Origin: Bdellovibrionales bacterium
Lineage (GTDB): Bacteria; Bdellovibrionota; Bdellovibrionia; Bdellovibrionales; UBA1609
Reading direction: 5' to 3'
Length of the DNA: 64,000 bases
NCBI GenBank assembly: GCA_965243065.1
Contig: CBDETO010000005.1
Span: 1,742,634-1,806,633 of the forward strand
The notes under the pieces are model-generated. The model was not told where the DNA came from. It did no database searches and saw only the letters and a program-made list of their open reading frames with translations. Positions 16,467 to 58,128 of this stretch are shown here, in pieces (positions within the stretch are counted from its first letter, which is position 1; each line of letters begins with the position of its first letter). The translations under genes and the position numbers were made by a program.

Positions 16467-16467
16467 G

Positions 16468-28130: not shown

Positions 28131-29261
28131 ATGGAAAAAAAAGGGGGGGGGAGTATATCTCGAAGGGAAAAAGCAATCCAGGTTTCTCCAGAGCAAGAAG
28201 GTTTAAGGTTAGATATTTTCTTATCTCAATATGTCTCCAGTCGTTCGCAGGCAGAAAAAATAATAAAACAAGGAGGGGTGAAGAATATCAGTGCCGGGCC
28301 TTATGAAAGTGTTAAGCCTTCTCATAAGGTAAAGGCAGGAGAGAGCTATCGCTTTGTTTTAGAAGATAAGGGCCAACAGGCGGCCTTAAAACCTTATGAT
28401 TATGATGTTCCTATATTGTATGAGGATGCGCATATACTAGTAATAAATAAGCCCGCGGGTATAGTGATGCACCCGGGAGCCGGGCACGAGCAAGATACTT
28501 TAGTGAACGCTTTATTTGAAAAGGTGTCCTTATCTTCCGGTGTGGATCCCTTGAGACCGGGCCTGGTTCATCGTTTAGATAAAGGGGTCAGTGGTCTTTT
28601 GCTTTTGAGTAAAACGCAAAGAGCCCAGAGTTTTTTAATTGAACAATTTAAGCTTAGAAAAATGAGACGTATTTATCGAGCTTTAGTCCTGGGCGTAGTA
28701 AAAAAGCCGGCTGGTCAGATTGTTAGTTTTATTGGTCGGCACCCTAAAGAAAGAAAAAAGTTTTACTCTTTCGATAAAGAAGTGGCAGGGGCTAAAAAAG
28801 CTCTTACTTACTATCGTGTTTTAGAATCTTTTCAAGATGGTATTCATCATATTCAATGTCGTTTAGAAACAGGTAGGACCCATCAAATACGGGTTCATTT
28901 AAGTAGTAAAGGCTGGCCGATTTTAGGAGATGAAGTCTATGGTTCCTGTCGTCGTCAAAGCAGAGCTTTAGACCGAATCGGTCAGGAATTTTCGTTCTCT
29001 AAACTTCTTTTCCCCTTTGGAGAAAAAAAAAGGAGATCGGAAAATGCAAAGCCTTTGGCTTTAGACCGAATCGGTCAGGAATGTACGCCCTCAAGGATAG
29101 CTCTTTATTCTGCTTTTTTGGAGTTTATCCATCCGGTAGGACAAAAGTTGTTGACCTTTTCCCTTCCCTGGCCGGAGGATTTTCAGCCATTTATGAAAAA
29201 ACTGGGTTTTAGCACTAAAGGGCCTGGTTCTTCCTTCCCTCCGGAAGGCTCTGGTTCATAA
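28131..29261 (+). CDS. rluD: RluA/RluD-family pseudouridine synthase
   Basis: N-terminal S4 domain (RLDIFL), NKPAG, VHRLDK, TGRTHQIRVH and PILGD motifs. Confidence 0.9.
   Translation: MEKKGGGSISRREKAIQVSPEQEGLRLDIFLSQYVSSRSQAEKIIKQGGVKNISAGPYESVKPSHKVKAGESYRFVLEDKGQQAALKPYDYDVPILYEDAHILVINKPAGIVMHPGAGHEQDTLVNALFEKVSLSSGVDPLRPGLVHRLDKGVSGLLLLSKTQRAQSFLIEQFKLRKMRRIYRALVLGVVKKPAGQIVSFIGRHPKERKKFYSFDKEVAGAKKALTYYRVLESFQDGIHHIQCRLETGRTHQIRVHLSSKGWPILGDEVYGSCRRQSRALDRIGQEFSFSKLLFPFGEKKRRSENAKPLALDRIGQECTPSRIALYSAFLEFIHPVGQKLLTFSLPWPEDFQPFMKKLGFSTKGPGSSFPPEGSGS
28969..29063 (+). mobile_element. 95-bp family C element, in frame in rluD
   Basis: TAGACCGAATCGGTCAGGAA start; TA at +94, shared with a second truncated copy. 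Confidence 0.65.
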
Positions 29262-29297
29262 AAAAACTTTATATTTTTTATGAATCAACCGAAAAAA

Positions 29298-29392
29298 TAA
29301 ACTCATCAGGTTTGATTTTTCCTGGCGGGCCTTTTTCTCTCTCAAGGGAAGAAAGGCTATAAAGGGAGGGGATTCCTGACCGGTTCGGTATC
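29298..29392 (-). mobile_element. 95-bp family C element, intergenic
   Basis: Reverse strand reads gataccgaaccggtcaggaat...aaatcaaacctgatgagttta. Confidence 0.6.
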
Positions 29393-29419
29393 TAACTTTT
29401 TTAAAAAGAAGGGAAAAAT

Positions 29420-29887
29420 GTGAAAAAGGCGGCTTGGTTTACTCTTATTTTTGTTTTTTTTATTTTAAATGTCGGTTCTGCTGTCATTTTGTTTTCTGAT
29501 AAGCGGCGGGGGTGGGTGCAAAGCTGGTTTATATCTGAAGAGCAAAAATTATTGTCTGTGGTGCATTCCAGAGACTTAATGTACGATGGAACCCTTATAA
29601 AGGTAGTAAAGTTTCAAACCATAAAAGGTATTGTGTTGGAGTTTTACTCCAGACATCAAAATGGTTATCATGCCTTAGTGACACGGGTGGAGATCCCTAA
29701 TGCTAAAGATGGTTTTTTTGATCATCGTGGACAGGCGGTTCAATTAGCCGTGGTGGACCTGGATGGAGATGGTAAAATGGAGCTTCTCTCTCCTACTTTT
29801 AATGAAAATCTCCAGGCCAGCTTAAATCCTTATCATTATTCTACCGAGGCCAAAGCTTTTATTCCTTTTTTCTTTCCTAAAAATTAG
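29420..29887 (+). CDS. Hypothetical membrane-anchored protein with FG-GAP-like Ca-binding loop
   Basis: N-terminal hydrophobic helix; DLDGDGKMEL motif. Confidence 0.65.
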   Translation: MKKAAWFTLIFVFFILNVGSAVILFSDKRRGWVQSWFISEEQKLLSVVHSRDLMYDGTLIKVVKFQTIKGIVLEFYSRHQNGYHALVTRVEIPNAKDGFFDHRGQAVQLAVVDLDGDGKMELLSPTFNENLQASLNPYHYSTEAKAFIPFFFPKN

Positions 29888-29996
29888 GTCCAGACAGAGC
29901 TGTTTTGCCCATAGAACTGTCCTTTATTTATATAGCAAAGTGGCAAAAATTGACAAAGTTATAAAATAATAGCAAAAGGAAGTGGGATGGCTTTCT

Positions 29997-30605
29997 ATGG
30001 TTTATAAACATCATGTCCCCTCTTTAGATCGTTTGATCCATGAATTAAAAAAATGGCCGGGGGTGGGACCTCGTAGTGCCAATCGTTGGGCAAATTGGTT
30101 GTTAAAAACATCTCAAGTGGAGATTCAACAACTCAGACAAGCTCTAAAAGATATAAAAACCAATATCAAAAAATGCCCTGGGTGTTTTACTTTAACCGAA
30201 GATGAAAAATTATGCTATTTATGTGATTCTCCCTCTCGCAGAAAAGATATTATTTGTATTGTGGAAGAACCTTTTGATATTGCTCATATTGAAGCTTCGG
30301 GTAAATTTAAAGGGCAATACCATGTGTTACACGGGGCCTTATCTCCTTTAAATAATATTAGTCCGGCAGATCTTACTTTTGGTCCTCTCATGGATAAAAT
30401 ACGGCAAGGGCGAATAAAAGAAGTGATTTTAGCTTTAGATGCGGATATGGAAGGCGATATTACAGCTTTGTATATTGGGAAAATGATGAAAAATTGTAAT
30501 GTAAAAGTGTCTCGCCTGGCTCATGGTATTCCCTTTGGCGGAGATATTGATTATATTGATGAACAAACTTTAGGCAGGGCCTTGGAAAATCGAGTGGAGA
30601 TATAA
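29997..30605 (+). CDS. recR: Recombination mediator RecR
   Basis: PGVGPRSA HhH motif, C4 zinc finger, and Toprim motifs YHVLHG and EGDITA. Start 29982 or 29997. Confidence 0.95.
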   Translation: MVYKHHVPSLDRLIHELKKWPGVGPRSANRWANWLLKTSQVEIQQLRQALKDIKTNIKKCPGCFTLTEDEKLCYLCDSPSRRKDIICIVEEPFDIAHIEASGKFKGQYHVLHGALSPLNNISPADLTFGPLMDKIRQGRIKEVILALDADMEGDITALYIGKMMKNCNVKVSRLAHGIPFGGDIDYIDEQTLGRALENRVEI

Positions 30606-30609
30606 AACC

Positions 30610-31200
30610 GTGTCTCTTTTTAATTATAATTCCAAAGAAATTCATTGTAAGGTCATCTATTATGGTCCCGGAGGGGCTGGGAAAACCACCAATATCAAAT
30701 GGATATGCCGAAATACTTTAGATCAGAAGTGGGATGTGTTTTCCATTCCTTTGCAGACAAAACCCAGTACTTTCTTTGATTTTTTGCCTTTGGATATTGG
30801 TTCCATTAGGGGGTTTAAAACGCGGTTTCACCTTTACACCATACCTGGAAATGATTTATTTAAAACTTCTCAAAAACTCTTATTGAAAGGGGTGGATGGC
30901 ATCGTGTTTGTTGTGGATTCACAAAAAGATAAAATGGAAGAAAATGAAAAATCTATGAATCAGCTAAAACAATATTTAAATGAAGAAGGGTTATCTTTAG
31001 AAAAAATCCCTATGGTCATACAGTATAATAAAAGAGACTTACCGGATATTCATTCTATTACACATATTCGTACAGCCTTAAATTATTATAATCATCCTGA
31101 TTTTTCAGCTTGTGCCGAAAAAGGACAAAATGTTTTTGAACCTTTAAAAACTCTTTTAAAGATGGTGCTTACTGTTTTAAAAGGGGGCCGTTTTCAATAA
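30610..31200 (+). CDS. mglA: MglA-family small Ras-like GTPase
   Basis: KVIYYGPGGAGKTTN, FFDFLPL, GFKTRFHLYT.PG, KGVDG and QYNKRDL motifs; follows recR as in Deltaproteobacteria/Bdellovibrionota. Confidence 0.92.
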   Translation: MSLFNYNSKEIHCKVIYYGPGGAGKTTNIKWICRNTLDQKWDVFSIPLQTKPSTFFDFLPLDIGSIRGFKTRFHLYTIPGNDLFKTSQKLLLKGVDGIVFVVDSQKDKMEENEKSMNQLKQYLNEEGLSLEKIPMVIQYNKRDLPDIHSITHIRTALNYYNHPDFSACAEKGQNVFEPLKTLLKMVLTVLKGGRFQ

Positions 31201-31363
31201 TTCTTGAGAAGGGCTTTCAAAAGCGTATAGAAGTGTTTCAATTATAGAATTTTAAGGGAGGAAAATAAAAAAACTTAAAGCGGGTAAAAAAATCTTTAAA
31301 GACTTTAGTCTAGTGACCGATACTTAGTAAAGACTTGGATGTACGACCGGTAACAGATACTTA

Positions 31364-31747
31364 ATGAAGGAAGGACGGGTGCCTATAATGAATTTAAGTA
31401 ATAAAGAAATACAGAAGGTAAAAGCCTGTTCTATTACCTTTTACAATGAGGAAAATATTATAGTTAAAAAAGCGATTATTTCAGAAGTGACGACAAGTGG
31501 GTTTAAGTTAATTCTTAATTATCGTAATTTAGTGCCGGATTCTCTCAAATTTCAATTACACTTAAGTAAGTTGTGGTATAAAAACATTCGTGTATATATA
31601 CCGGATATGGAAATGGATTGGGAAGGAAAAGTGATCGGCACTCAACATCTGGGAAAAGGCCGTTTTGAGGTGAACATAGAGTTTTTTCAGGAAGTTCCTC
31701 ATTATTGGCGAGAGTGTCTATTTGACTTATGGCCTAAACCTATTTGA
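31364..31747 (+). CDS. Hypothetical protein, possibly PilZ-like beta-barrel
   Basis: ISEVTTSGF resembles the PilZ D/NxSxxG strand; 127 aa. Confidence 0.5.
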   Translation: MKEGRVPIMNLSNKEIQKVKACSITFYNEENIIVKKAIISEVTTSGFKLILNYRNLVPDSLKFQLHLSKLWYKNIRVYIPDMEMDWEGKVIGTQHLGKGRFEVNIEFFQEVPHYWRECLFDLWPKPI

Positions 31748-31784: not shown

Positions 31785-33284
31785 TTACGACTCTAGATCT
31801 TTAGAGTCTAAAATCTCTGCTGAGAATGTATTTTGGATCTCCTGGATCAGGTGATGCTCTTGAACCTGGGTTTTTAAATCTGGTTTTTCTTTTAAGGCTT
31901 GTCTGTTTTTTTTCTCTTTGCTTTGTTTTGTGGTTTTCGTAGCTTCTTTTTTTGATGAGGATGTATTAGTCCGGTTGATTCCTGCTTCTGCGAGGATCAG
32001 GTTTTTTGCTTGGTTCTTTTTTTCTCCCGTGGGAACAGGTGTTCCCGTGGGAACAGGTGTTCCCCCGGGAACAGGTGTTCCCACGGGAACATCTGTTCCT
32101 GTGGGGAGAGAGTCTTTGAAAGCTGCGTTTTCCTCATCTGTTTGGGGTAATGTATTTTCTTTGGGAGGATTCATTCCAAAAAGGCTTTCTACATAAGGGG
32201 CTTGGCTCATTTTTAAAAGGAGCATTTCTAAAAAGACTTTTGTGTCTTGAACACGGGTGATTTCCCAAGAACCTTTTAAAGTCATATCTAAAAGGAGATG
32301 GAGATCTTCAGGAGAGACACCCTGAATCCCTTTGGAAAGCTTTAATTTTTCCTCTTGGGATAAAGAAATTAAGTGACGTGTAGAACGAGGGGAAGCTAAT
32401 TTTAATAATAGTAGATTTCTTAATTCTTTAATCAGATTTTGTAAGAATACGGAAGGATCCCCTCCTTTTATATGAAGTTGGTTAAGCACTTTAAGTATTT
32501 GTTGGGGATTTTTTTCTAAAAGCCCTTGAAGACTTTGTGTAAGAAGAGCTTCGTCTGTTAATCCTAAAACTTCACTCACATCTTTAGATGTAAAATGGTT
32601 ATGGCAAAAAGTCATCATTTGATCTAAAAGCCCTTGAGCATCCCTCAAAGAACCCTGTGCCTCTCTTACCAAGGTCCATAGGGCATTATCTTCTGTTTGT
32701 GCTTTTTCTTTCTTGCAGATTTTTTTTAATTGTTCGTAAATTAGGTGGTCAGCGATCTGATGAAATTGTAAAATCTGACATCGGGAAAGTACCGTGGCAG
32801 GAATTTTTCTCATCTCTGTTGTCGCCATGATAAAAAGAGCGTGAGGAGGAGGTTCTTCCAGTGTTTTTAACAAAGCATTGAAAGCACTCACCGATAACAT
32901 GTGCACTTCATCAATGATATATATTTTGTAAGGCCCAGCGGGAAGATAAATAATGGTTTCTTTTAACTGTCTTACAGATTCCACTCCATTATTGCTTGCT
33001 CCATCAATTTCCATAACATCTAAGGAGCAGCTATTGTCTATGTCTTGGCAGACTTTGCATTGATTACAGGGAGTTAAATTTTTTAAATTTGAACAGTTTA
33101 AGCTTTTAGCTAAAATACGGGCGGTGGAAGTTTTTCCTGTCCCGCGCGGACCTGCAAAAATAAGAGCCGGGTGCAGACGTTTATGTTTTAAACTATTTGT
33201 TAAAATCCGTACAACAGAACTTTGACCAACGAGGTCTTCAAAAACCGCAGGTCTCCATTTTCTAGCTAACACTTGATAAGACAA
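31785..33284 (-). CDS. dnaX: DNA polymerase III subunit gamma/tau
   Basis: (M)SYQVLARKWRP, GPRGTGKTS, IDEVHMLS, LLKTLEEPP and SRC motifs. TTG 33284 preceded by GGAGG. Confidence 0.96.
   Translation of the reverse strand: MSYQVLARKWRPAVFEDLVGQSSVVRILTNSLKHKRLHPALIFAGPRGTGKTSTARILAKSLNCSNLKNLTPCNQCKVCQDIDNSCSLDVMEIDGASNNGVESVRQLKETIIYLPAGPYKIYIIDEVHMLSVSAFNALLKTLEEPPPHALFIMATTEMRKIPATVLSRCQILQFHQIADHLIYEQLKKICKKEKAQTEDNALWTLVREAQGSLRDAQGLLDQMMTFCHNHFTSKDVSEVLGLTDEALLTQSLQGLLEKNPQQILKVLNQLHIKGGDPSVFLQNLIKELRNLLLLKLASPRSTRHLISLSQEEKLKLSKGIQGVSPEDLHLLLDMTLKGSWEITRVQDTKVFLEMLLLKMSQAPYVESLFGMNPPKENTLPQTDEENAAFKDSLPTGTDVPVGTPVPGGTPVPTGTPVPTGEKKNQAKNLILAEAGINRTNTSSSKKEATKTTKQSKEKKNRQALKEKPDLKTQVQEHHLIQEIQNTFSAEILDSKDLES
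32025..32105 (-). repeat. 18-bp coding tandem repeat in dnaX (PxGTPV, about 4.5 copies)
   Basis: tcccgtgggaacaggtgt-like units at 32025, 32043, 32061, 32079 and 32097. Confidence 0.85.
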
Positions 33285-38793: not shown

Positions 38794-39969
38794 TTAATGG
38801 TCTTTACTTAAAGAAGATATGAGGTAAGTGTTAACATACTGAGATACTTTTTTGCTAGAGCCTTTAGGGATGCGGGTTCTCCAATGTTCTATGTACCTGG
38901 GAATGGAATCCCTCAACAAAGCGGGATTCAAAGTTTTTATTTTTTTGTAAGGTTCTTTTATATAACTGGCTAAAAGGCGTAAATTTGTGCCGCCGGGTAA
39001 ATAAAAAATTTCATAAGTGTAAGGCTCTTTTATTTTTAAATAATTAAAACCATAAAGAGGGGGGGCTTTAGCGATAGTGATAGCCGCTATGAGTTGAGGT
39101 ACATATTGACCTGTTTCATAAGGGAAATCATACTTTTGAGCTAGAGACCAAAAATTTTTTGTTTTATATTTTTTAATAAGCCGGGTGAGTTTTTGTTCCC
39201 CCATGTTATAAGCGGCGGCGGCCAGATACCAGTCTCCAAATTGTTTATATAAAAATCGTAAATATTGACTGGCGGCATAGGTGCTTTTTTCAAAATCTTT
39301 TCTTTCGTCCAACCAGGAAGCCTCTCGCAGGCCAAAGCGTGAGGCCGTGGCTTTTATGAATTGCCAATATCCTACAGCTTGAGCAGAACTAATCGCTCCA
39401 GATGAAAAACCACTTTCAATCATGGCTAAATAGGCTAAATCTTCCGGTAAGTTTTGTTTTTTAAAAATTTCTTTCATCATGGGAATGTAACGATAGGATC
39501 GCTCCAACCATAAACGAAAACGGCTTGAATAACGGCTTTGAAAAGCCTGAATCCATTGCTCTACCCAATAATTATGGACAAGGGGGAGATCAGAAAAAGG
39601 GTCTATTAAAATGAGACCCATTCGGTTTGATCCCCGCGAAGCTGGTTCTTGTAGAAGCGAGCGGGATTCCCGCTTTTGCGGGAATGACATTTTCCGCGAA
39701 GCTGGCCCCCGCGCAAACGGAGGGGGGGAATAGGGTTTTCTACTTGTCTTTTTTTCTTTTACGGGAAAAGAGGTTCGAAAGTGGCCTTTTTTTTCTATCT
39801 TTTGTGTAAAAGCAGGAAAAGCAGGAAAAGGAGAAAAACCTATAAATATTATAACAGAAAACAGCGGGAAATATTTTCTTATTATGGAGACCTTTTTTTT
39901 TAAAAATTTTTTCATATTTGTAGCTTTAAATATTTTTTTGTTTATCATGTTTAAAAATAAAAAACCCAT
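38794..39969 (-). CDS. MltD-like lytic murein transglycosylase (SLT domain)
   Basis: LAMIESGF, AVGYWQF, DERKD, LAAAAYNMGE and ETGQYVP motifs; exact start uncertain. Confidence 0.88.
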   Translation of the reverse strand: MGFLFLNMINKKIFKATNMKKFLKKKVSIIRKYFPLFSVIIFIGFSPFPAFPAFTQKIEKKGHFRTSFPVKEKKTSRKPYSPPPFARGPASRKMSFPQKRESRSLLQEPASRGSNRMGLILIDPFSDLPLVHNYWVEQWIQAFQSRYSSRFRLWLERSYRYIPMMKEIFKKQNLPEDLAYLAMIESGFSSGAISSAQAVGYWQFIKATASRFGLREASWLDERKDFEKSTYAASQYLRFLYKQFGDWYLAAAAYNMGEQKLTRLIKKYKTKNFWSLAQKYDFPYETGQYVPQLIAAITIAKAPPLYGFNYLKIKEPYTYEIFYLPGGTNLRLLASYIKEPYKKIKTLNPALLRDSIPRYIEHWRTRIPKGSSKKVSQYVNTYLISSLSKDH

Positions 39970-40526
39970 AAGCTTAGTTTTTGATTTTTTTATATATAAG
40001 ACAAGACAATATGAGTTATGGCCGAAAAGGTCAGAAAACCTCTCTTTTAAGAAGACAGACTTAGCGAGTTTTGTTTTTTATTGGAAAGAGGCGTATGGAA
40101 ACCACAAAATAGATCTTTGCGGAAACAGGGATCAAACCAAATCAGTATAAATTCAAGATATTAATCCCCGTCAGTGTAGTTGTTGCAGAATCGGAAGCTC
40201 TATACCGTCTAACAAAGGTGATGAATAAGGGGATATATTTTTTACACAGATAAAGTAATTCTTTCACACTATATATTATTGTACAAAATTATCAAGGCCA
40301 AATAACAAAGATTGTCAAAATTTTCTTTTCAGAATTGTGGACTCAGTGCAAATAAGATAGGGCTAAAAAGGGAAAAAAAGCACAAACCTATTTTCCGGTT
40401 TCTTTTTATTTTAGAAAAAAAAGCTAAGATAACATGGACTTATTATTTTTAGAGTGCAGAGAGCTTGTGGTAAAAGCGGGAGCTTTTACTTTATGCGTAT
40501 ATATTTTTCAATCTTGTAACATAAAT

Positions 40527-40830: not shown

Positions 40831-41103
40831 AAAATATTTAGTATATAGAATAGGAATTTTATACCAGATCGGTATAAAGTGTTTTCTTTATGTTATGTCT
40901 GTCTTAGATAGATAATCCTTTATTTTATGGGAAGAGGGCTTAAAAAGTTTATATATTTTTAGTGGAGCATTGAGTAAATTTATCTTTCTAAAAGCCAGGT
41001 AGTATAGTATTTTTACTCTTATTTTGAGTGGATTTATGATAAAGAAATAAAAACTTGATTTCTTACAAAGGCAAGCGCGGTAAGTAATGGGAAGGGGGAG
41101 TAT

Positions 41104-42084
41104 GTGGAAGAAATATTTTTTAAACCTTTAAGTGAAGGATTAGGTTTTTATGACCCTCCCCGCCATTTTGATATGTCAGGTTCTGCTAAAAAAACAGACC
41201 GCTCCAGGCAGGAATGGGCAAGCTCTGAACCCCGTTCACCTTCGAGAGGAAGCTTGCAGAACCCACAAAATTCAAACCAGATCAGTGTAACTGATTTACA
41301 GAAAAAGAATTTTTTACCTTCGGAGGAATGGCCTGATTCCCTTCTATCGGGAACTTTAGACTTGGACGATTCGCAAAATTATGAGCACCTTATATCTCTT
41401 TTGGAAAAACCTTGGTTAGGAAAAAAAAGCACTCAAATGCCCTCTGTGTCGCCAGTAAAAACCACTATAGACCGCACCAGTCAGGAAGGGGCGAACTCTG
41501 AACCCCGTTCACCCTTGGAAGGAAGCTTGCAGCACCCACAAAGGGCAAGCCAGGTCACTGTATCAGCTCCGGGCCAGCAGGATATTTCAAATAAAAATAT
41601 TTTAAACAGCTCTACCTTAAATGAAAATAAGGATAAGAAAAGTAAAATCCCCTCGCTTCTTAAAAAAACATTTTATTTTTCTTTAAAAGCTTATCTAGTG
41701 GATGCTTTTGTTATTTCTTTGTTATTTTTCCCTCCTTTTGTTTTGTTCGTGTTTCTAACTCAACCCGCTCCTATAGCTGTATTGCCCTCGGTCTGGTTCC
41801 AGATGCTGTTGGTTTTTCTCTGTTTTTCTCAGATTTACTATCTTCTATGTCGTTTGTTTTGTTTTGAAACCTACGGAGAAACTCTTGCTAAAATAAGACT
41901 TTGCCATTTAGATTCCTCAAAAGAGGTGCATCCCTATAGGTTGCTTTTGCGATTTTTTATTTCTTGCGCCACCGGTTTTATTTTTCTCCCTTTGTTGTCT
42001 CTTATCTTTAGGCGGGATTTTATGGCTCGTTTAACTGGTCTTTATTTTCAAAAAATAGAGATAAACCTTGGAGAATCAAGTTGA
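41104..42084 (+). CDS. RDD-family-like membrane protein with a long N-terminal linker
   Basis: [11 protein letters not shown]-terminus; C-terminal TM region with AYLVD and ETYGE; contains two family C insertions. Confidence 0.65.
41195..41289 (+). mobile_element. 95-bp family C element, in frame
   Basis: Encodes [31 protein letters not shown]. Confidence 0.7.
41468..41562 (+). mobile_element. 95-bp family C element, in frame
   Basis: TA-bounded; encodes [31 protein letters not shown]. Confidence 0.7.
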
Positions 42085-42923
42085 AAAAAAAGAATGAAGT
42101 GTCACAAAAACTATGGGCTGTTGTTAAAAAATACCGGGATATTCGATTAGAGAAGACCCAGGACGGGGTGGCTAAAATCACTATTTGTAGGCCAGAGGTG
42201 CACAATGCCTTTCGTCCTCAGACAGTCAAAGAAATGAAAGCCGCCTTTGAGTGGGTGCGAGAGGAACCCTCTATTGGAGTAGTGATTTTAACAGGGGAGG
42301 GTTTTAAGGCTTTTTGTGCGGGAGGCGATCAAAAAACGCGCTCAAAAGGGGGGTATGTGGGAACAGATGGAGTTCCCAGGCTGAATATTTTGGATGTGCA
42401 AAAACAGATTCGCCATTTACCTAAACCGGTAATAGCTATGGTAGCGGGTTACGCTATTGGAGGGGGGCATGTGCTTCATGTGGTGTGTGACCTCACTATT
42501 TGTTCCGTTAATGCCCGTTTTGGTCAAACGGGGCCGAAAGTGGGATCTTTTGATGGGGGCTTAGGGAGTGCTTATTTAGCCCGGATCGTAGGGCAGAAAA
42601 AAGCAAGAGAAATATGGTACTTGTGTCGTCAATATGGAGCTAAAGAAGCTTTACAGATGGGCCTGGTTAATTGTGTTGTACCTTATAAGGAGTTGGAAAC
42701 GGAAACATTAAAATGGTGTAGAGAGATATTAAAACACTCTCCTATGGCCCTTCGATGTTTAAAAGCTGCTTTAAATGCGGACTGTGATGGACAGCAAGGC
42801 TTAATGGATCTAGCGGGTAATGCCACTTTGCTTTATTATCTTAGTGAGGAAGCTCAAGAAGGAAAAAAAGCTTTTTTAGAAAAAAGAAAACCCGACTTTT
42901 CCCAATTTCCTCGTTATCCTTAA
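42081..42923 (+). CDS. menB: 1,4-dihydroxy-2-naphthoyl-CoA synthase
   Basis: [31 protein letters not shown] and [11 protein letters not shown] motifs. Confidence 0.97.
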
Positions 42924-45548: not shown

Positions 45549-45798
45549 AAGGGGCTGTAAAGTGACAAAAAAAAGAATACCCGCAGGGGAAATAATGCCA
45601 TTATCTCGATCTATCTTCAAGGGGCTGTAAAGTGACAAAAAAAAGAATACCCGCAGGGGAAATAATGCCATTATCTCGATCTATCTTCAAGGGGCTGTAA
45701 AGTGACAAAAAAAAGAATACCCGCAGGGGAAATAATGCCATTATCTCGATCTATCTTCAAGGGGCTGTAAAGTGACAAAAAAAAGAATACCCGCAGGG
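45549..45798 (+). repeat. 70-bp perfect tandem repeat (3.6 copies) duplicating the menE start region
   Basis: Units at 45549, 45619, 45689 and 45759. Each contains AAGGGG, GTG and the first codons of menE. Confidence 0.95.
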
Positions 45799-46989
45799 TA
45801 TAAAATTAATCCTTCTCGAGTGGATTGGGAATCGGAAAACTCCCTCCTTTTTTTTAATGAGCGACATGCAAAAAAAGATATTTTTGTGTCCTCTTTATCT
45901 CATCTTCCTTATTTAAAGTCGCATATATGGTTAGCTACCTCTGGTCGGGTTTGTCAAAAATGGGTGGCTCTTTCCAAAGAAGCTTTGCTGATTTCCGCTC
46001 AAGCGGTTAATCAGCATCTTCAGGTGAGGGCAGAGGATCGTTGGGGGCTTTGCCTGCCTTTGTTTCATGTAGGAGGTTTAGCTATTTTAGCTCGTGCTCA
46101 TCTCTCTCATAGTTCTTACTTTTTGTTTCAGGAGAAATGGTCTGCTGCTTCTTTCCTGGCCTTTTTAAATCGAAACAAGATCACTTTAAGTTCCCTCGTT
46201 CCTGCGCAAGTTTATGATATAGTAAGAGCAAAGCTTCCTTGTCCTTCTTTTTTAAGGGCAGTGGTCGTGGGAGGAGAAAGTTTAAGTCCTATCCTTTACC
46301 CTGCCGCCCGGAAGTTAAATTGGCCCTTACTACCGTCTTATGGTCTTACGGAATGCGCTTCTCAGGTGGCGACAGCCGAGTTAGACACTCTTATACCGAA
46401 CCGATGCGGCTTCGCAAGGGGCATACCAGATCAGTATAATAAAATGGAAATGCCAAAAATGAAAATCCTTTCTCATGCTCAACTTAAAATCGTTCATCAA
46501 GAAATTGGGATTCGATCCCGTAGTCTCCTTAGTGGTTTTGTACCTCTTTTGCCTTCGTCTTCTCGTTTAGAGTTTCAAAACCCCGGCCCGGGTGGATGGT
46601 ACTTTACAGGAGATAAAGGCTCTTTAGAAGGGGCTTTTTTACAAGTAGATAACTCAGCTCAAATAAAAATATTGGGTGAGAAAATAAATCTAGGAGATTT
46701 AGAAGAGACATTGATGAATGTTGTATTAAAAAAAAAGGAAATATCAGGGCGATATATTCTTCTCCCTGTGCCCAGTGAAAGAGAAGGGTTTCAAATAGCT
46801 CTTATTTCAGATGTTTTTTACAGACCCATTTTAGCTGATCTTATTCAGGAATTTAATAAGAAAGTTTCTCCTTTTGAAAGGATTAGAAAGTTTTATTTCG
46901 TTCCTCAATTAACTTTTACTGATATTTCCAAACTTTCTAAGCCAGCTTTACTTGAAAAAATGGCCTTCTCTTCAGAAAAGCTGTTTTGA
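45772..46989 (+). CDS. menE: o-succinylbenzoate-CoA ligase (AMP-binding family)
   Basis: ATSG, LPLFHVGGL, SLVPAQ, SYGLTECASQ and TGDKG motifs. Confidence 0.85.
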   Translation: MTKKRIPAGYKINPSRVDWESENSLLFFNERHAKKDIFVSSLSHLPYLKSHIWLATSGRVCQKWVALSKEALLISAQAVNQHLQVRAEDRWGLCLPLFHVGGLAILARAHLSHSSYFLFQEKWSAASFLAFLNRNKITLSSLVPAQVYDIVRAKLPCPSFLRAVVVGGESLSPILYPAARKLNWPLLPSYGLTECASQVATAELDTLIPNRCGFARGIPDQYNKMEMPKMKILSHAQLKIVHQEIGIRSRSLLSGFVPLLPSSSRLEFQNPGPGGWYFTGDKGSLEGAFLQVDNSAQIKILGEKINLGDLEETLMNVVLKKKEISGRYILLPVPSEREGFQIALISDVFYRPILADLIQEFNKKVSPFERIRKFYFVPQLTFTDISKLSKPALLEKMAFSSEKLF

Positions 46990-49106: not shown

Positions 49107-49407
49107 ACCCAGAGGGTTTTGATAGTTGAATTATATAAACAGAGAGCTTCTTTCAAGATAGAATAGAAACTAAAAGGCTCAGACATGCGTTTTGCCACAG
49201 AGCAACCTATGGTTGCTCATGTGTCAAGCTTGTCCCCGAGAAAGCGGGAATCCGAACTCGCTTTTAGTTCCTATTCTATCTTGAAGAATACACTACATTA
49301 TAAACCCAGAGGGTTTTGATGGTTGAATTATATAAAATTTATGATGATATGTCATTCCCGTGAAAACGGGAATCTCAAACCCAGAGGGTTTTGATAGTTG
49401 AACTCCA
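49096..49407. repeat. 44-bp direct repeats (family D) flanking a family B MITE, plus a REP
   Basis: 49096-49139 matches 49293-49336 with one mismatch; third partial copy at 49377-49402; MITE at 49152-49285; REP at 49350-49374. Confidence 0.8.
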
Positions 49408-53520: not shown

Positions 53521-55575
53521 ATGAAGGATGGGAACCCTCTAGTTAAAAATTTTAAAAGAAAAAATACTTTATTTCCTCAGACTAAAAATAAACCAAAATA
53601 TTCTGTGTTTGTAGAAGATGGCAAAGGAAAAAAGTGGGAGCTGGCCGATCCTAGAATAACCCGTTTGGCTTTAGCTTTAATGGATATGCAGGCAGGGCTG
53701 GGGGGGGCAGCCAGCCACTGGGGAGGACCTTCCGCTTTTGCGGAAATGGTGTCGGCTCTTTATGCTGTAGTTTTTCGGTTGGCTAATAAGGAAGATCGCC
53801 CTTGGTATGACTTATTTCATTTGATTAATGATGCTGGTCACTGTGAAAACGGGCTTTATGCTATTAAAGCTAATTACGGTATGGGGGGGCTTAGTTTTAA
53901 AGATTTAAAAGGATTCAGATCTATAGATAGCCCTTTGACAGGACATGGGGAAGCTCATCTTTTTCCGGAGGGGGTGTATTTAAGTAATGGCCCCTTAGGT
54001 TCCACTTTGGCACAAGCTCAGGGTCTTTGCATGGCGGATGGTCTGGCGGGGTTAAAGCGATCCACCCTTGTTTTAATGTCGGACGGAGCTTGTATGGAGG
54101 GAGAGGCAAAAGAAGCTTTTCATTCTATCCCGGGTTTTTTTCAAAAAAATGAGATGAATCCTTTTATCGTGATCGTTAGTGATAATAACACTAAATTAAG
54201 TGGCCGCATTGATGAAGATAGTTTTCCTTTAAATCCCTTTTTTAAATCTTTGGAAACAGTGGGGTGGAAGTATGTAGAGCTTTCTTCGGCTCATGATTTA
54301 AAAAGTTGTGTAAATACTTTAGAAGAGGTGTTGACGGGTTCTTTTTCTACTTTAAAAACGCAGCCGGTTTTTATTCATGCCAAGACCATCAAAGGTTATG
54401 GTGTAGAGGCCACACAAAAAGCCCCGCACGGAGGGCATGGCTTCCCTCTTAAAAATACGGAAAAGCTTTTGGATTTTTTAGAGGAAATTTATGGTGGGAG
54501 GGATATACCGATTGAGTTTTTAGATTGGGCTAAGGAATTGGATCGGAAGAGTCAGGAATTAAAAAAGAAAAAATCTATGGGTTCAGATACAAAGAAGGTA
54601 AAAGTGCAGGAAGGAATAGGGAAAGCTATGATCCATTGTCGGGAGGAAAAAGCTTTGCCTGTGGTATCGGTGAGTGCGGACCTTCAAGGTTCTACGGGAG
54701 TTCTTCCTTTTAGAAAAAAGTTTCCTGATTTTTCTTTTGATGTGGGAGTGGCCGAAGCGAATATGGTTTCTTTAGCTGCCGGTTTTTCCAAGCAGGGTTT
54801 TATTCCTGTGGTGGATACTTTTACTCAATTTGGTGTTACTAAGGGGGCTCTTCCTTTGTTTATGGCTAATTTGTCGCAAGCCCCAGTGATAGCTGTTTTT
54901 TCCCATGCCGGACTTCAGGATGCCGCTGACGGAGCCTCTCACCAGTGCCTCACCTATCTGGCTAAAACCTGTGCTCTGCCTATGACAGATGTTTATTGTT
55001 TGAGTTCCAGTGAAGAGGCTTTTTCTTTAATGACCCAGGCTATAGAGTCTTTTGCTCAGGCTTATAAAGAAGGAAAAGTGCCCAGAACAAAAATCTTTTT
55101 TTTAGGGAGGGAGATTTTTCCTCCTACTTATTTGCCTGAAGATTATTCCTATAAACTGGGGCAAGCACAGATTGTTTATTCTCAATTGGAAAATAAAGAA
55201 AAAGCTCTGACATTATGGACGGCGGGGCCTTTGTTAGAGCAAGCTTTGAGGGCGGGCCAGATTCTTTTTGAAAAAGGGTGGAAAATTATAGTGGTGAATG
55301 CTTCTATTGTTAATTACCCTGATATGGAAACACTTCTTTCTTGTTTGGAGAAAACCCATTTTCGTTTGTTGACTATAGAAGATCATCGTTTACCAGGGGG
55401 TATGGGTTCTTTGGTGGCGCAGACCTTAGCCATGAAAGGGGTATCCGTGGATATGCACTCTTTAGCCGTAAAGTCAGATTTTGGTCGGAGTGCTTATAGG
55501 TCTTCTCAGCTATATAAACAGGAAAAACTTATGGCGGAAGATATTGTGAAAGTTTCTTTATCCAAGTGGTCTTAG
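53521..55575 (+). CDS. tkt: Transketolase-family TPP enzyme (single chain)
   Basis: SHWGG, AGH, GH, GPLGS, SDGACMEG..NN TPP motif, GVAEANMV and DGASHQ motifs. Confidence 0.8.
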   Translation: MKDGNPLVKNFKRKNTLFPQTKNKPKYSVFVEDGKGKKWELADPRITRLALALMDMQAGLGGAASHWGGPSAFAEMVSALYAVVFRLANKEDRPWYDLFHLINDAGHCENGLYAIKANYGMGGLSFKDLKGFRSIDSPLTGHGEAHLFPEGVYLSNGPLGSTLAQAQGLCMADGLAGLKRSTLVLMSDGACMEGEAKEAFHSIPGFFQKNEMNPFIVIVSDNNTKLSGRIDEDSFPLNPFFKSLETVGWKYVELSSAHDLKSCVNTLEEVLTGSFSTLKTQPVFIHAKTIKGYGVEATQKAPHGGHGFPLKNTEKLLDFLEEIYGGRDIPIEFLDWAKELDRKSQELKKKKSMGSDTKKVKVQEGIGKAMIHCREEKALPVVSVSADLQGSTGVLPFRKKFPDFSFDVGVAEANMVSLAAGFSKQGFIPVVDTFTQFGVTKGALPLFMANLSQAPVIAVFSHAGLQDAADGASHQCLTYLAKTCALPMTDVYCLSSSEEAFSLMTQAIESFAQAYKEGKVPRTKIFFLGREIFPPTYLPEDYSYKLGQAQIVYSQLENKEKALTLWTAGPLLEQALRAGQILFEKGWKIIVVNASIVNYPDMETLLSCLEKTHFRLLTIEDHRLPGGMGSLVAQTLAMKGVSVDMHSLAVKSDFGRSAYRSSQLYKQEKLMAEDIVKVSLSKWS

Positions 55576-55775
55576 GCTTGAGTCATTCCCGCAGAAGTGG
55601 AAGTAAAAGTGAGAAAGATATTTAGTGATTATAAAATGTTATGAAATAAAATAGCGTTTCCTACATAGAACTAACATTTTTCATTATTAACCAGGCTGTC
55701 TAGTCGAAACGGTGGCCACGCCAAATTGGGGGCCAAAGCACTACTAATTCTTGTTTAAATTTCTGAGGTTTTTAC

Positions 55776-55895
55776 TGGATCCCCGCTTTTGCGGGGATGA
55801 CAATTTTCGTATGGATGACACTTTTCGTATGGATGACACTTTTCGTATGGATGACAATTTTCGTATGGATGACAATTTTCGTATGGATGACAATT
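55776..55895. repeat. REP hairpin followed by an 18-bp tandem array (about 5.6 copies)
   Basis: ggatccccgcttttgcggggatgac, then ggatgaca(a/c)ttttcgtat at 55795, 55813, 55831, 55849, 55867 and 55885. Confidence 0.9.
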
Positions 55896-56151
55896 ATTTA
55901 TACACTTCTTTTCTGTGACCGATTTTAATAACAAAAATAGTAACGACTTTCTTTTCAATAGAATAAATTATTCGATAATCTCCCACTCTTCTTTTCATTA
56001 GTCCTTTTAGGTTTCTTCTTAAGGGAGTTCCAAATCGTATAGGGTCCATCATCAATTTTTCTTCAATAGTTCTTTTTATAAGATATCTTGTTTTTTCAGG
56101 AATATTTTTAAGGTCTTTTTGTACAGAGCGTTTATAAATGATTTTCCACAT
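55894..56151 (-). CDS. relE: RelE/ParE-family toxin
   Basis: RRVGDYRIIY and IGHRKEVY motifs. Confidence 0.9.
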   Translation of the reverse strand: MWKIIYKRSVQKDLKNIPEKTRYLIKRTIEEKLMMDPIRFGTPLRRNLKGLMKRRVGDYRIIYSIEKKVVTIFVIKIGHRKEVYK

Positions 56152-56376
56152 TTACTTTATGGACCATATTTTTTTATGTGATAGTGTAGGCTCTGCTTTT
56201 CTTTCTGCGGCAATTTGAGCAAAGTAAAGATCTTCTTGAAGTTCTAAGGCTTCTTTTGTGAGTTCAATAACTATAGCGGATAAAGAAGGGGATTTTCTGG
56301 TTTTTCTCAGTTTTTCCAGTTGATTGTAAAGGTGAGGATCTACTGTCAGGTTAATTCTTTTATTAGTTGTAGGCAT
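56152..56376 (-). CDS. Putative ribbon-helix-helix antitoxin
   Basis: RINLTVD..LY beta-strand/helix pattern, ALELQED, directly upstream of the toxin. ATG 56376 lies downstream of the promoter. Confidence 0.8.
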   Translation of the reverse strand: MPTTNKRINLTVDPHLYNQLEKLRKTRKSPSLSAIVIELTKEALELQEDLYFAQIAAERKAEPTLSHKKIWSIK

Positions 56377-56408
56377 TTTTATTTTCCTTTTGTTTCTTGA
56401 AAAGAAAA

Positions 56409-56446
56409 TGTTACTTAAGTGTAACACCTTGATATTGTCTTGTCAA
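56409..56446 (-). promoter_or_regulatory. Sigma70 promoter and palindromic operator of the TA operon
   Basis: Minus strand TTGACA-N17-TACACT. The inverted repeat TGTTAC-N6-GTAACA (56409-56426) overlaps the -10 box. Confidence 0.75.
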
Positions 56447-56471
56447 GCTTTATGGAGATGAGAGGGAAGCT

Positions 56472-56702
56472 TTATTCTGTTTTTTCGTTGGGTGAAGAAG
56501 AAGATTCCTGGGGATTTGTGCCGTTTTCTTTAGAGGAAAGAGTTTGATTATTTTCCGGGGTATCTGGTTTTTCTTCCAGACCTTTTTTAAAGTCTCTTAA
56601 GGCTTCTCCTAAGGATTTTCCAAACTCCCTAATTCTTTTATGACCGAAGAGGAGAAGAAAAATACCAAGAATGATTAAAATCTGCCAAAGTGATGGATAC
56701 AT
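56472..56702 (-). CDS. tatA: Twin-arginine translocase subunit TatA
   Basis: LLLFG.KRI..GKSLGEALRDFKK motif; GGAGG before ATG 56702. Confidence 0.9.
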   Translation of the reverse strand: MYPSLWQILIILGIFLLLFGHKRIREFGKSLGEALRDFKKGLEEKPDTPENNQTLSSKENGTNPQESSSSPNEKTE

Positions 56703-56760
56703 GTTTATCCCTCCTGTTTTTTTCCTTATAAGCGAAGAAAAGACCAGAAGCAATATTTTT

Positions 56761-56903
56761 TATACCCAAAAGGTAATTTTTCCGTAACTCTTCAGTTCTT
56801 TCCGCTTGTGGCAAACCGCATGTCCGAGACTTTTGACTCTATTCTCTTAGGAAGAGAACTTTCTGCTGTCAGAATCTTTTAACCTCTATTCTCTTAGGAA
56901 AAG
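56761..56903. repeat. Composite repeat remnant (family E plus right half of family B)
   Basis: ttccgtaactcttcagttctttcc, tgtggcaaaccgcatgtc, and ctctattctcttaggaa twice. Confidence 0.65.
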
Positions 56904-56921
56904 CACTACATCCACCGGGTA

Positions 56922-58004
56922 TTATTTTTCAAAACTGAGGATTTTTTTAATTAAGCTGGAAGGGTTTTTTTTTGCTAGGTTTTTAATGGAAACCCATGAA
57001 ACATCTGGCAAAGAGGAAGAAGGTGTTTTTTTAGATACGAGAACATAAATAGCATGATGAGTGATGAAATGTATAAAGTCATATTTCTTGGGTGGGGTTT
57101 TTTTTCTCATGGCTTTTCCAGGGAAGAAAGGGTAGTTTTTTAGTACGGGCAAAGAATGATGATAAGTTAGAGCTATTTTATTTTCTTTTATACTCGTTCG
57201 GTTTGGATTTTTTAGGTGTTTCTTTGTTTCTTCCACGGGGAGGCGGAGTTCGGAGTTGGCCCATTCCTGACCGGTTCGGTCTATCAACAAAACCGGCTGC
57301 CAGAACCATATTTCTTTTGCCTTTTTTTCTTTTTTAAGAGGGATCAAATGAATTTGATTATATTTCAGAGCTTGGCAGCTTTTTTTAAGAGGGCAGGTTG
57401 TGCACAGAGGTTTCCCGACTGTGCAAACAAGAGAACCTAATTCCATTAAGGCTTGATTTAAAATGGCCGGAGGGTGTTTTATCATCCATTGATCCACTTC
57501 TTTTTGTAAAAAGTCTCTTTCTTTTTTATTCCACCAGGGTTTTTTAAAGTTAAGATAGCGGGCCAGTACCCGAATGACATTGGCATCTAACACTCCTGTT
57601 TTTTCATTAAAAGCTAAAGCACTGACCGCCCGGGCGGTATAGGGACCAAAACCGGGGAGTTTTAATAATTCCTGATAAGTGCGTGGAAAGTATTTTTGTT
57701 TATTAATGATCTGTGCCGACTTATGAAGATTTTTTACTCGGGAGTAGTAACCCAGGCCAGACCAATAGGGGATAACTTCTTCCAGGGGAGTCTTAGCTAA
57801 AAATTCTAAAGTTTTAAATTTTTTAATGAATTTTTTGTAATAGGGGATCACTGTGTTCACAGTGGTTTGTTGCAGCATTACTTCCGATACCCATATAAGA
57901 TAAGGGTTTTTCTTTTTTGTTCTCCAGGGAAGAGGTCTTTTGTTTTTCTTATACCATTGGATAAGCTCGCTTTGACTAGTGTGATGTGGATTTTCTGACA
58001 TCAT
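56922..58004 (-). CDS. mutY: A/G-specific adenine glycosylase MutY
   Basis: RPLPWR, VSEVMLQQT, WSGLGYYSR, LPGFGPYTA, DANVIRV and NQALMELG motifs, plus 4Fe-4S cysteines. Confidence 0.95.
   Translation of the reverse strand: MMSENPHHTSQSELIQWYKKNKRPLPWRTKKKNPYLIWVSEVMLQQTTVNTVIPYYKKFIKKFKTLEFLAKTPLEEVIPYWSGLGYYSRVKNLHKSAQIINKQKYFPRTYQELLKLPGFGPYTARAVSALAFNEKTGVLDANVIRVLARYLNFKKPWWNKKERDFLQKEVDQWMIKHPPAILNQALMELGSLVCTVGKPLCTTCPLKKSCQALKYNQIHLIPLKKEKKAKEIWFWQPVLLIDRTGQEWANSELRLPVEETKKHLKNPNRTSIKENKIALTYHHSLPVLKNYPFFPGKAMRKKTPPKKYDFIHFITHHAIYVLVSKKTPSSSLPDVSWVSIKNLAKKNPSSLIKKILSFEK
57189..57283 (-). mobile_element. 95-bp family C element, in frame in mutY
   Basis: TA-bounded; encodes DRTGQEWANSELRLPVEETKKHLKNPNRTSI. 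Confidence 0.75.
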
Positions 58005-58035
58005 TTTTATTTTCTCAAAATCAGTATAAAATAAG

Positions 58036-58128
58036 GATACTGAACTTGTTGGTTTTTTAGTTTCTATAAACTTCTTTCCCAGGGAGAACGAAGTGCGAAG
58101 CTCGCAAATTCCTGTTCGGTTCGGTAAA
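58036..58128 (-). mobile_element. Family C element, intergenic (93 bp)
   Basis: Reverse strand reads tttaccgaaccgaacaggaattt...caagttcagtatc and aligns end to end with the mutY copy. Confidence 0.65.

Follow-up and report, generated by a model that had tools for sequence, protein, structure and literature searches.

The genome under study (G000) carries a family of short repeats that duplicate a TA dinucleotide at their target, occupy different sites in related genomes and lie within genes whose reading frame is preserved across them. We consider it most probable, at roughly 0.8, that this is a family of miniature transposons (MITEs) inserting at TA, read through where it lands in genes and kept in frame there by selection. 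The element is a non-autonomous mini-transposon, being small, without a transposase gene, bounded by (weak) terminal inverted repeats, associated with a target duplication and dispersed in many copies; no related autonomous insertion sequence (IS) sharing its ends was found in G000 or its sister species G014, and accepted MITE families often lack one. This overall interpretation had been proposed in a first-pass annotation of a 64,000-nt window, the whole stretch of DNA analysed here. The observations which that annotation named as able to overturn it (the same 31-residue segments in orthologues, similarity between copies no better than chance, or an existing description of the family) came out in its favour.

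The repeat family and its copies in the window

Six copies had been reported in the window, five of 95 nt and one of 93 nt, and all six were found at their positions and with these lengths. Their assignment to rluD, the 41104-42084 frame (two copies) and mutY, with 29298-29392 and 58036-58128 intergenic, was likewise reproduced. The copies and their host genes are as follows.

28131..29261, + strand: host gene rluD
28969..29063, + strand: copy c1, 95 nt, inside rluD 3' of the pseudouridine synthase domain, phase 1
29058..29093, + strand: lone 5' end of the element, directly abutting c1, in rluD
29298..29392, - strand: copy c2, 95 nt, intergenic, between rluD and the next frame
40065..40149, + strand: partial (seventh) copy, profile positions 32-95, E 3.7e-5, CM 15.4 bits
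41104..42084, + strand: host gene of a 326-aa membrane protein, one frame housing c3 and c4
41195..41289, + strand: copy c3, 95 nt, in the N-terminal region of the 326-aa membrane protein, phase 1, G000-specific
41468..41562, + strand: copy c4, 95 nt, in the same gene as c3, phase 1, common to G014
56922..58004, - strand: host gene mutY
57189..57283, - strand: copy c5, 95 nt, inside mutY, phase 1, common to G014 only
58036..58128, - strand: copy c6, 93 nt, intergenic, between the mutY start (58004) and the alaS end (58131)

Copies 29298-29392, 57189-57283 and 58036-58128, which lie on the minus strand, were reverse-complemented for alignment with the three plus-strand copies. The six align over about 95 columns with a mean column identity of 66% and 25 invariant columns. 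A profile iterated from them returned 55, 101, 107 and 108 matches in successive rounds at E<=1e-4. At E<=1e-3 it gave 128 matches in the 2.17 Mb of G000, a count that includes paralogous duplicates (864161 and 867792; 447714 and 1929053; three pilin-like paralogues), so that the copies are not all independent events. The reversed genome gave none, and the similarity far exceeds chance. Near-full-length copies make up 84 of the 128 matches, with a length mode of 95 nt (30/84) followed by 116 nt (10) and 137 nt (4). The 116- and 137-nt forms contain a 21-nt GC-rich hairpin nested at one fixed position, and the longest forms (137-180 nt) carry nested short repeats only, with no transposase gene.

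No earlier description of the family was found: an Rfam search of the window gave no matches, and literature searches returned no account of this element family. A diverged sister family of about 95 nt is present in the congeners G006, G010 and G001. It shares with the G000 family an identical 3' end (...CAAACAAGATCAGTATA) and a similar 5' end, whereas its interior has diverged; its copies score 17-26 bits against the G000 model, compared to as much as 87 bits for copies from G000 and G014. DNA of the G000 lineage occurs in sponge metagenomes.

In RluD, where Pfam PseudoU_synth_2 spans residues 101-259, the c1 insert begins at about residue 283 and is translated in phase 1 as LDRIGQEFSFSKLLFPFGEKKRRSENAKPLA; at this place rluD of G000 is longer than in all 13 congeners aligned. 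The 25 nt at 28965-28989 are repeated at 29058-29082 with a period of 93, creating a second 'ALDRIGQE' in RluD. The lone 5' end at this place is an nhmmer match to profile positions 1-32 (E 8.7e-4; CM 17 bits) and may be a tandem second copy with an internal deletion. The seventh, partial copy is outside any long open frame (longest 38 aa). The 326-aa membrane protein is kept in 15/15 genomes of the genus; it had been labelled an RDD-family protein, and it has no Pfam match at E<=1e-5.

Insertion at TA and differences between relatives

The terminal inverted repeats are short and imperfect (TACCGAACCGGT... / ...ACCAGATCAGTA). Pairing the first 14 consensus positions with the last 14 gives 10 that are complementary and an eleventh that is ambiguous, and a repeat finder run on four single copies returned a 14-nt arm at 79% in one and nothing terminal in the other three. 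TA is present at the 5' flank of 59/84 near-full copies and at the 3' flank of 73/84.

The TA duplication proposed in the first-pass annotation, along with the single-TA empty sites by which it was to be checked, was borne out by close relatives: all six clean empty sites have a single TA, and the net gain at the filled sites is 93 nt in five cases and 99 nt in one. Insertions differ both ways, with copies found only in G000 (c3 and a copy in pgm) and copies found only in the sister lineage (five sites). At the c3 site, G014 has one TA and no insertion, whereas G000 has the copy and is 93 nt longer. Six candidate copies from a sister-lineage MAG were compared with G000 sites; five correspond to single-TA empty sites in G000, all within open frames of 391-859 aa (gains of 93, 93, 93, 93 and 99 nt), and the sixth did not align. 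The place matching c2 in G014 has no full copy, only a short look-alike of the 5' end, and the place matching c6 there has no copy. At the mutY site, which has TA on both sides when filled, the 31-codon block is present in 2/12 aligned orthologues, consistent with the single-TA empty sites. Of 30 other genomes searched, 29 lack the 31-residue segment of MutY and the sister G014 alone has it, the outcome that the proposal of an insertion called for.

These features suggest how the family propagates. A mobile unit of about 91 nt goes into TA and duplicates it, and because the target is duplicated a canonical insertion adds exactly 93 nt, or 31 codons. Within a gene it causes no frameshift, and no stop in four of six cases, owing to the 31-codon gain combined with stop-free frames. 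The host gene would then be translated through with about 31 extra residues; selection would retain genic copies in frame, intergenic copies would decay freely, and the family would have spread recently in the G000 lineage and its sister species.

An IS630-like transposase with matching ends, which had also been expected, was not found in G000 or G014. In these genomes, which are 92-94% complete, DDE_3 (IS630) and DDE_Tnp_4 had no matches; Transposase_1 also had none, a blank that says little, as the control gave no match in any genome. The only IS630-type element of the genus, present in about nine copies in G006, was considered as a partner and rejected, its ends being unrelated. Pairs of element ends 0.3-5 kb apart were judged by position, and none among the closest 60 of 68 was autonomous-like. 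Of the features that define IS630/Tc1-mariner MITEs, the element thus shows the TA duplication, and ends matching an IS630-type element were not found. Based on the TA duplication, we put at even odds the involvement of an IS630/Tc1-mariner-type transposase acting in trans.

Reading through host genes

The consensus has no stop in any of the three sense frames or in one of the three antisense frames, which together with the net gain of 31 codons means that insertions in genes are read through. Genes were called as open frames plus Pfam, without a gene finder. Open frames of at least 180 aa contain 54/128 matches, of which about 12 lie within 50 codons of the frame start and are possibly upstream of the true start; elements are rarer there than random 95-nt windows, 2605/4000 of which fall in long open frames. 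The phases in long open frames are 4/29/14 in sense and 7 in antisense. The single reading frame described in the first-pass annotation therefore holds for the four coding copies in the window and gives way genome-wide to three sense phases and one antisense. Phase-1 peptides share the pattern (Y/D)RTGQE...

An internal position was shown for 22 copies in 20 genes, including mutY, rluD, cysS, pheT, mfd and pgm, by a Pfam match N-terminal to or around the insert for 20 copies and by orthologue alignment for two more. The Pfam scan covered 43/50 host frames, 31 of which have a family. Host genes also include the ATP synthase delta subunit, and some serve in DNA repair or tRNA charging. Most congeners lack the phase-0 copy in pgm, and the pheT match is interrupted at its antisense copy in 4/14 congeners.

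Frame is kept within genes: length minus 2 is divisible by 3 in 38/40 near-full coding copies, compared to 10/24 non-coding ones. The copies shared with G014 have diverged without indel or stop, c4 being identical at 71/95 nt (24 differ) and c5 at 75/95 nt (20 differ). In an AlphaFold2 model of MutY (mean pLDDT 83), the insert lies between strands 231-242 and 276-280 in the C-terminal part. Its residues 249-273 have no secondary structure and a pLDDT <50, which may partly reflect coverage by just 2/12 alignment rows; the model predicts that the extra residues form a floppy loop. The inserted peptides are presumably translated, and harmless rather than useful; a search for RNA runs containing the sequence gave none.

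Alternative explanations

The over-representation of phase 1 (29/47 sense copies against 38% from TA availability, p 0.004) and the shared phase-1 pattern would be expected of a useful 31-residue protein module, such as a linker, targeting or interaction tag, that spread by recombination or selection with the DNA repeats as a by-product. We regard this as very unlikely, since the peptides encoded by this DNA in its three sense phases and one antisense phase are unrelated, 74/128 matches fail the long-open-frame criterion, and a duplicated TA, as seen from six clean empty sites, is a signature of transposition. Moreover, the shared inserts have 50-63% protein identity between G000 and G014, compared to 77-83% for the host proteins, and the MutY insert is a predicted disordered loop. 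Nor do the host genes look like decaying pseudogenes of a shrinking genome, with the in-frame state a matter of chance survivorship in proteins that no longer work. The genome is indeed small and loaded with IS elements and repeats, and the relative scarcity of elements in long open frames would fit such decay. Among the hosts, however, are essential genes present in single copy (cysS, pheT, the ATP synthase delta subunit and mutY beside alaS), whose frames are full-length and have Pfam domains flanking the insert. The difference in frame-keeping between copies inside and outside genes, and the c4 and c5 frames that have stayed open in both species since their split, also make this explanation highly improbable.

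If the family were of the REP or PATE palindromic kind, mobilised through single-stranded hairpins by a Y1 (RAYT/IS200-IS605) transposase, neither TA duplication nor terminal inverted repeats would be expected, yet both are present here. The folds of c2 and c1 are indeed slightly more stable than those of shuffled sequences (z -1.4 and -1.9), the nested hairpin occurs in the 116- and 137-nt forms, and the genome is rich in short palindromic repeats; but c5 and c3 show no such advantage over shuffles (z +0.14 and +0.15), RNAalifold found 0 conserved pairs in 25 copies, and Y1_Tnp had no match in G000 or G014 while its control was positive in 6/14 genomes, leaving such an element with very little probability. 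Nothing was found in favour of removal of the insert after transcription or translation, as with an intron or intein, to yield a mature protein that lacks it, and we give this almost no credence: 31 residues have no catalytic capacity, there is no conserved RNA structure, the window has no Rfam intron match, and the need of the copies to stay in frame would be pointless if they were spliced from RNA.

Comparison with known systems

Rickettsia palindromic elements (RPEs) were reportedly described by Ogata et al. in 2000 as RPE-1 to RPE-10. In partial accounts they are 100-150 bp repeats, intergenic and coding, that lie in frame in housekeeping genes and expanded in lineage-specific bursts (PMC10969869, PMC1779305). 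To the extent of these accounts, the TA-inserting MITE of G000 resembles them as a short interspersed repeat with many copies in the intergenic and coding DNA of a small genome, in frame in unrelated housekeeping genes and with lineage-specific bursts; pheT houses a copy in both cases. In contrast to RPEs, the G000 element resides in a Bdellovibrionales-like host rather than in Rickettsiales, has a clear TA duplication, proven empty sites and short terminal inverted repeats, lacks a conserved palindrome (0 pairs in 25 copies; z +0.15 to -1.9 in four copies) and uses three sense phases and one antisense. The likeness to RPEs drawn in the first-pass annotation thus stands for in-frame insertion (22 copies, 20 genes) and fails for a conserved hairpin.

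RUP of Streptococcus pneumoniae, Correia of Neisseria and Nezha of cyanobacteria are TA-duplicating MITEs tied to IS630-type elements; they are mostly intergenic and known for promoter and transcript effects. The G000 element is similar to them in size (about 100-150 bp), terminal inverted repeats, TA duplication, high copy number and lack of a transposase gene, but about 4 in 10 of its copies are in open frames, it is stop-free in all sense frames, and no IS630 partner with matching ends was found for it. For QMITE1 and QMITE2 of Coxiella burnetii, the portion of the source used here describes effects mostly at gene ends, as added C-terminal residues or stops, and mid-gene in-frame cases confined to hypothetical proteins (PMC5896051). 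On that description, these MITEs of a host-associated bacterium are like the G000 element in overlapping genes, sometimes in frame, and adding residues, whereas in G000 at least 20 genes, most of them with Pfam-recognised families, have an insert in their interior.

Few processes can add new sequence to old proteins, and the entry of selfish repeats into functional genes is among them; most work on it has been done in Rickettsia, where it is not settled how RPEs move. The outcome in G000 is the same, and here the mechanism can be read from the duplicated TA, gains of exactly 93 nt, and sites filled in one sister genome and empty in the other. It offers a second, independent system for asking how far insertions are tolerated, where in folds they land and whether inserts become useful, and for annotation it explains the odd 31-residue inserts in proteins of this lineage. 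It is possible, though doubtful, that the element is adapted to life inside genes beyond mere tolerance, as a convergent counterpart of the Rickettsia elements, its adaptations being a fixed 31-codon payload, stop-free sense frames and a hydrophilic loop-forming peptide. If so, the roughly 65% of this compact genome that is open frame would be safe landing ground, insertions could be dated from the clean TA empty sites, and some loops may be co-opted for function.

Copies, length and ends of the repeat family

The window contains six copies of a TA-bounded repeat, present at the coordinates given in the first-pass annotation. When oriented, they align over ~95 columns, of which 25 are invariant, at a mean identity of 66%, and their conserved ends read TA(T/G)ACCGAACCGGT... 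and ...ACCAGATCAGTATA.

Element copies in the window
28969-29063, plus strand, copy c1, in rluD
29298-29392, minus strand, copy c2
40065-40149, partial copy from the profile search
41195-41289, plus strand, copy c3, in the gene for a 326-aa membrane protein (frame 41104-42084, plus strand)
41468-41562, plus strand, copy c4, in the same gene
57189-57283, minus strand, copy c5, in mutY
58036-58128, minus strand, copy c6

The six copies seeded an nhmmer profile, which was iterated on the 2.17-Mb, five-contig assembly (G000, the genome under study); successive iterations gave 55, 101, 107 and 108 matches at E≤1e-4, a cut-off of E≤1e-3 gave 128, and the reversed genome gave 0, so that the similarity is beyond chance. 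Near-full-length copies made up 84 of the 128 matches; their commonest length was 95 nt (30/84), with secondary modes at 116 nt (10) and 137 nt (4) because one or two 21-nt GC-rich hairpins sit inside the element, always at the same point close to its 3' end. These longer forms stay in frame, as each hairpin unit adds 7 codons. The nested hairpin core, GTCCTCGCGAAAGCGGGGA, occupies the same element position in both subfamilies (for example G000:C5 426175-426290, 859972-860087, 1634002-1634116 and 2042897-2043033), and similar hairpins also stand alone in the window, for example at 561-597 and 39625-39721. TA was found at the 5' end of 59/84 and at the 3' end of 73/84 near-full copies. The terminal inverted repeats are short and imperfect: when the outermost 14 consensus positions of the two ends are paired, 10 are complementary and an eleventh is ambiguous. 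A lone element 5' end adjoins the rluD copy, where 25 nt are repeated exactly 93 nt further on, and RluD consequently contains 'ALDRIGQE' twice.

Insertion at single TA sites

The mutY copy is absent from orthologues outside the closest relative. In a protein search of 30 other genomes from the genus, family and order, the MutY match was broken between residues 236-247 and 269-282 in 29 and uninterrupted only in the sister genome, G014. An alignment of 12 orthologues places a block of exactly 31 residues in G000 and G014 that is missing in ten congeners; at the DNA level it is 93 nt with TA at each side. Copy c3 is not in G014, where the empty site reads ...AAAAAAA-TA-GCTGATT..., compared to ...AAAAAAA-CA-[element]-TA-ACTGATT... 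in G000, a gain of 93 nt.

The reverse comparison started from a sister-lineage MAG, in which 19 model matches, spread over ten loci, had their flanks mapped to G000. Here G000 was shorter by exactly 93 nt at four full copies, by 99 nt at one and by 91 nt at one, the remaining matches being partial copies, sites occupied in both genomes or copies whose flanks map elsewhere. Five of the six sites show a single TA in G000 against TA-element-TA in the MAG; the sixth gave no alignment. With c3, all six clean sites thus have the one-TA empty state that the first-pass annotation had proposed looking for. With c3 absent from G014 and the MAG copies absent from G000, insertions have occurred on both sides after G000 and the sister lineage split; the G014 and sister-lineage MAG loci are treated as a single line of evidence. 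No exact empty site could be reconstructed for the rluD insertion, whose linker varies across all congeners; the G014 linker may hold a decayed element remnant. The G014 orthologue of the 326-aa membrane protein (L068) carries a further ~40-residue insertion, missing in G000 and the other 12 congeners, which may be another in-frame element.

Copies inside genes and their reading frames

Long open frames were defined as stop-free for at least 180 codons through the match, with at least 25 codons before it and at least 15 after. The definition admits 54 of the 128 matches, spread over 50 distinct frames; of the rest, 70 fall short and 4 are without any open frame. A Pfam scan of 43 of the 50 frames assigned at least one family (E≤1e-5) to 31; the seven set aside were three pilin-like paralogues, a frame paralogous to a scanned one, and three short ones (185-228 aa). 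For 20 copies the Pfam match lies N-terminal of the insert or spans it, and these copies are therefore internal to proteins. Their hosts are CysS, a Na/Ca exchanger (a case that depends on the reading of a second, unlisted Pfam stretch), a UvrD-type helicase, an APH-type kinase, YicC, a metallo-beta-lactamase-fold protein, a Ser/Thr kinase, TrmB, a TPP enzyme, Mfd (two copies), phosphoglucomutase, a GT2 glycosyltransferase, PheT, a glucose/sorbosone dehydrogenase, a FadB-like protein, RibD, an epimerase, RluD and MutY. Orthologue sequence is conserved at both sides of c3 and c4 in the 326-aa membrane protein, which brings the total to 22 secure copies in 20 genes. About 12 other long-frame copies, <50 codons from the frame start, may lie upstream of the true start. 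Several genes hold more than one copy, with three in the APH-type kinase frame and two each in Mfd and the membrane protein.

The claim that coding copies are all read in the same frame holds for the four in the window and fails genome-wide. Among the 54 long-frame copies, 47 are sense, in codon phases 0/1/2 = 4/29/14, and 7 are antisense; for the 22 secure copies the phases are 2/12/6, with 2 antisense. A phase-0 copy in pgm gives a ~45-residue insert absent from G014 and most congeners, and at the antisense copy in pheT the match is interrupted at the insert in the relatives G005, G009, G010 and G011. The family consensus is stop-free in all sense frames and one antisense frame, and 7-10 of 24 non-coding copies are stop-free per sense frame, compared to ~3 for shuffles. 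TA dinucleotides in long open frames fall into the three codon phases at 15%, 38% and 47%; since 29 of 47 sense copies use phase 1, against 38% availability, this phase is used more than TA targets predict (p 0.004), an excess we hold loosely because the counts are inflated by paralogous duplicates.

The coding copies are kept in frame by selection: copy length minus 2 is a multiple of three in 38/40 coding compared to 10/24 non-coding near-full copies. Relative to their G014 counterparts, c5 has 20 and c4 24 substitutions in 95 nt, and neither has an indel or a stop; their peptides are 63% and 50% identical, compared to 83% and 77% for the host proteins. Because peptide identity is lower without any indel or stop, the inserts drift faster than their hosts yet stay readable. 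Long open frames hold a smaller share of the elements (54/128) than of random 95-nt windows (2605/4000), a depletion that fits the loss of harmful insertions. In an AlphaFold2 model of MutY from a 12-row alignment (mean pLDDT 83), insert residues 249-273 score <50 and have no secondary structure, between two flanking strands, with only two alignment rows spanning the insert; a surface loop would be expected to look like this.

Distribution among genomes and samples

A sequence-only covariance model of 25 copies, run on 41 genomes, gave at least ~100 matches in G000 and the same in G014, weak matches in the relatives G006 (4), G010 (2) and G001 (1), and 0 in the other 36, the model being too narrow to declare congeners free of relatives. 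The weak matches represent a diverged ~95-nt family sharing the element's 3' end, so the element lineage is older than the G000/G014 burst. A search of 185,579 species genomes for the exact 20-nt end motif, to which diverged relatives are invisible, hit one Bdellovibrionales MAG, in 10 stretches. One further match, in a Chitinophagaceae MAG, was rejected by the model as chance.

In contigs of runs labelled sponge metagenome the 41-kb region is almost unaltered and retains both copies; no RNA run was listed with this region. Across 40900-42200, three of four runs gave one spanning contig and the fourth two abutting contigs. All four carry both copies, and no join that skips either copy was seen, a result of little weight because contigs drop rare variants. 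G000 also encodes an ankyrin-repeat protein (L042, G000:C5:906438-908708) and bears a heavy IS and repeat load for 2.17 Mb. Ankyrin protein, repeat load and sponge-metagenome occurrence fit a host-associated life.

Candidate mobilising enzymes

Strict TA duplication is a hallmark of the IS630/Tc1-mariner superfamily. The IS630-like transposase proposed in the first-pass annotation was not recovered, as DDE_3 had 0 matches in G000 and G014 while its control worked. Transposase_1, DDE_Tnp_4 and Y1_Tnp also had 0 matches in these two genomes, the Transposase_1 control being positive in no genome, which leaves that blank of little value. Pairing 5'- and 3'-end models at 0.3-5 kb gave 68 pairs, mostly adjacent MITE copies or weak matches, and no autonomous copy stood out among the 60 closest, judged by position alone. 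The two abundant IS families of G000, IS4-like (1.94 kb, DDE_Tnp_1) and IS110-like (1.69 kb), were rejected as mobilisers, their ends being unrelated to the element, as was a G006 IS630-type element by BLAST of six G006 loci. The latter, 1.17 kb with a 343-aa transposase, is present in about nine copies on G006:C1 (L081-L086); 7 of its 10 matches are listed with open frames, and another copy is disrupted. With genomes 92-94% complete, the transposase partner may have been lost, be unassembled or reside in another strain, and we give roughly even odds that an IS630-type enzyme mobilised the element.

Three profile matches in 397-427-aa frames, considered as transposases, proved to be pilin-like paralogues with repeat-rich leaders (G000:C5:715325-716605, 552969-554159 and 1196479-1197759). 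The leader consists of 6 to 12 SSPLL repeats, and the first two thirds of the 95-nt element sits just upstream of the prepilin-type N-terminus.

Other repeats and IS elements

The window also holds a second repeat family of ~115 nt, with ends like CTTCAGGAGAGAATAGG... and ...CCTATTCTCTCCTGAAG, and several tandem arrays.

Other repeats in the window
2045-2158, ~115-nt repeat
6787-6905, ~115-nt repeat
8239-8357, ~115-nt repeat
10369-10538, ~115-nt repeat
10553-10804, tandem array, 84-nt unit formed of two palindromes
11048-11167, ~115-nt repeat
16455-16572, tandem array, unit ~19-20 nt
32025-32114, tandem array, unit 18 nt
45549-45806, tandem array, unit 70 nt
49151-49288, ~115-nt repeat
55776-55901, tandem array, unit 18 nt

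At least one IS110-type element (352-aa DEDD transposase, at least 12 genome copies) sits between two halves of a ~115-nt repeat (G000:C5:1851100-1852950), which suggests that IS110 targets this repeat. The IS4-like element encodes a 564-aa DDE_Tnp_1 transposase and has at least 10 copies. One, within G000:C5:864157-869489, is flanked by two 100% identical 1.7-kb segments that each open with a 95-nt element copy. The arrangement, in which a UvrD-type helicase gene has its 3' end, is a recent duplication or an assembly join. Two small contigs of G000 are largely tandem repeats (C1, period ~757 nt, 100% identical; C4, ~824 nt, 98%) and could come from a repeat-protein gene or from the assembly itself.

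Relation to known elements

RUP, Correia and Nezha are TA-duplicating MITEs. On its anatomy the element belongs to the same class.

Two sources on Rickettsia palindromic elements (RPEs) describe 100-150-bp repeats in coding and non-coding DNA, inserted in frame in unrelated housekeeping genes, with lineage-specific bursts and one insert in pheT (PMC10969869, PMC1779305). The element behaves similarly, down to an insert in pheT, with the frequency comparison drawn from review text. Unlike RPEs, it resides in a different phylum and lacks a hairpin conserved across copies (0 pairs in 25; folding z +0.15 to -1.9). The likeness is one of published descriptions, which do not by themselves make the element an RPE. 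It also resembles Coxiella QMITEs, which overlap genes as well (PMC5896051).

The observation made in the first-pass annotation is thus confirmed and its interpretation supported. The mechanism is well supported up to insertion and read-through. Which enzyme mobilises the element, and what becomes of the added peptides, is inferred. Rfam gave 0 matches in the window, and the literature surfaced only general MITE and Rickettsia papers, in line with the initial impression that the family had not been described. Judged on these sources, the family itself is new, and the kind of behaviour it shows is already known.
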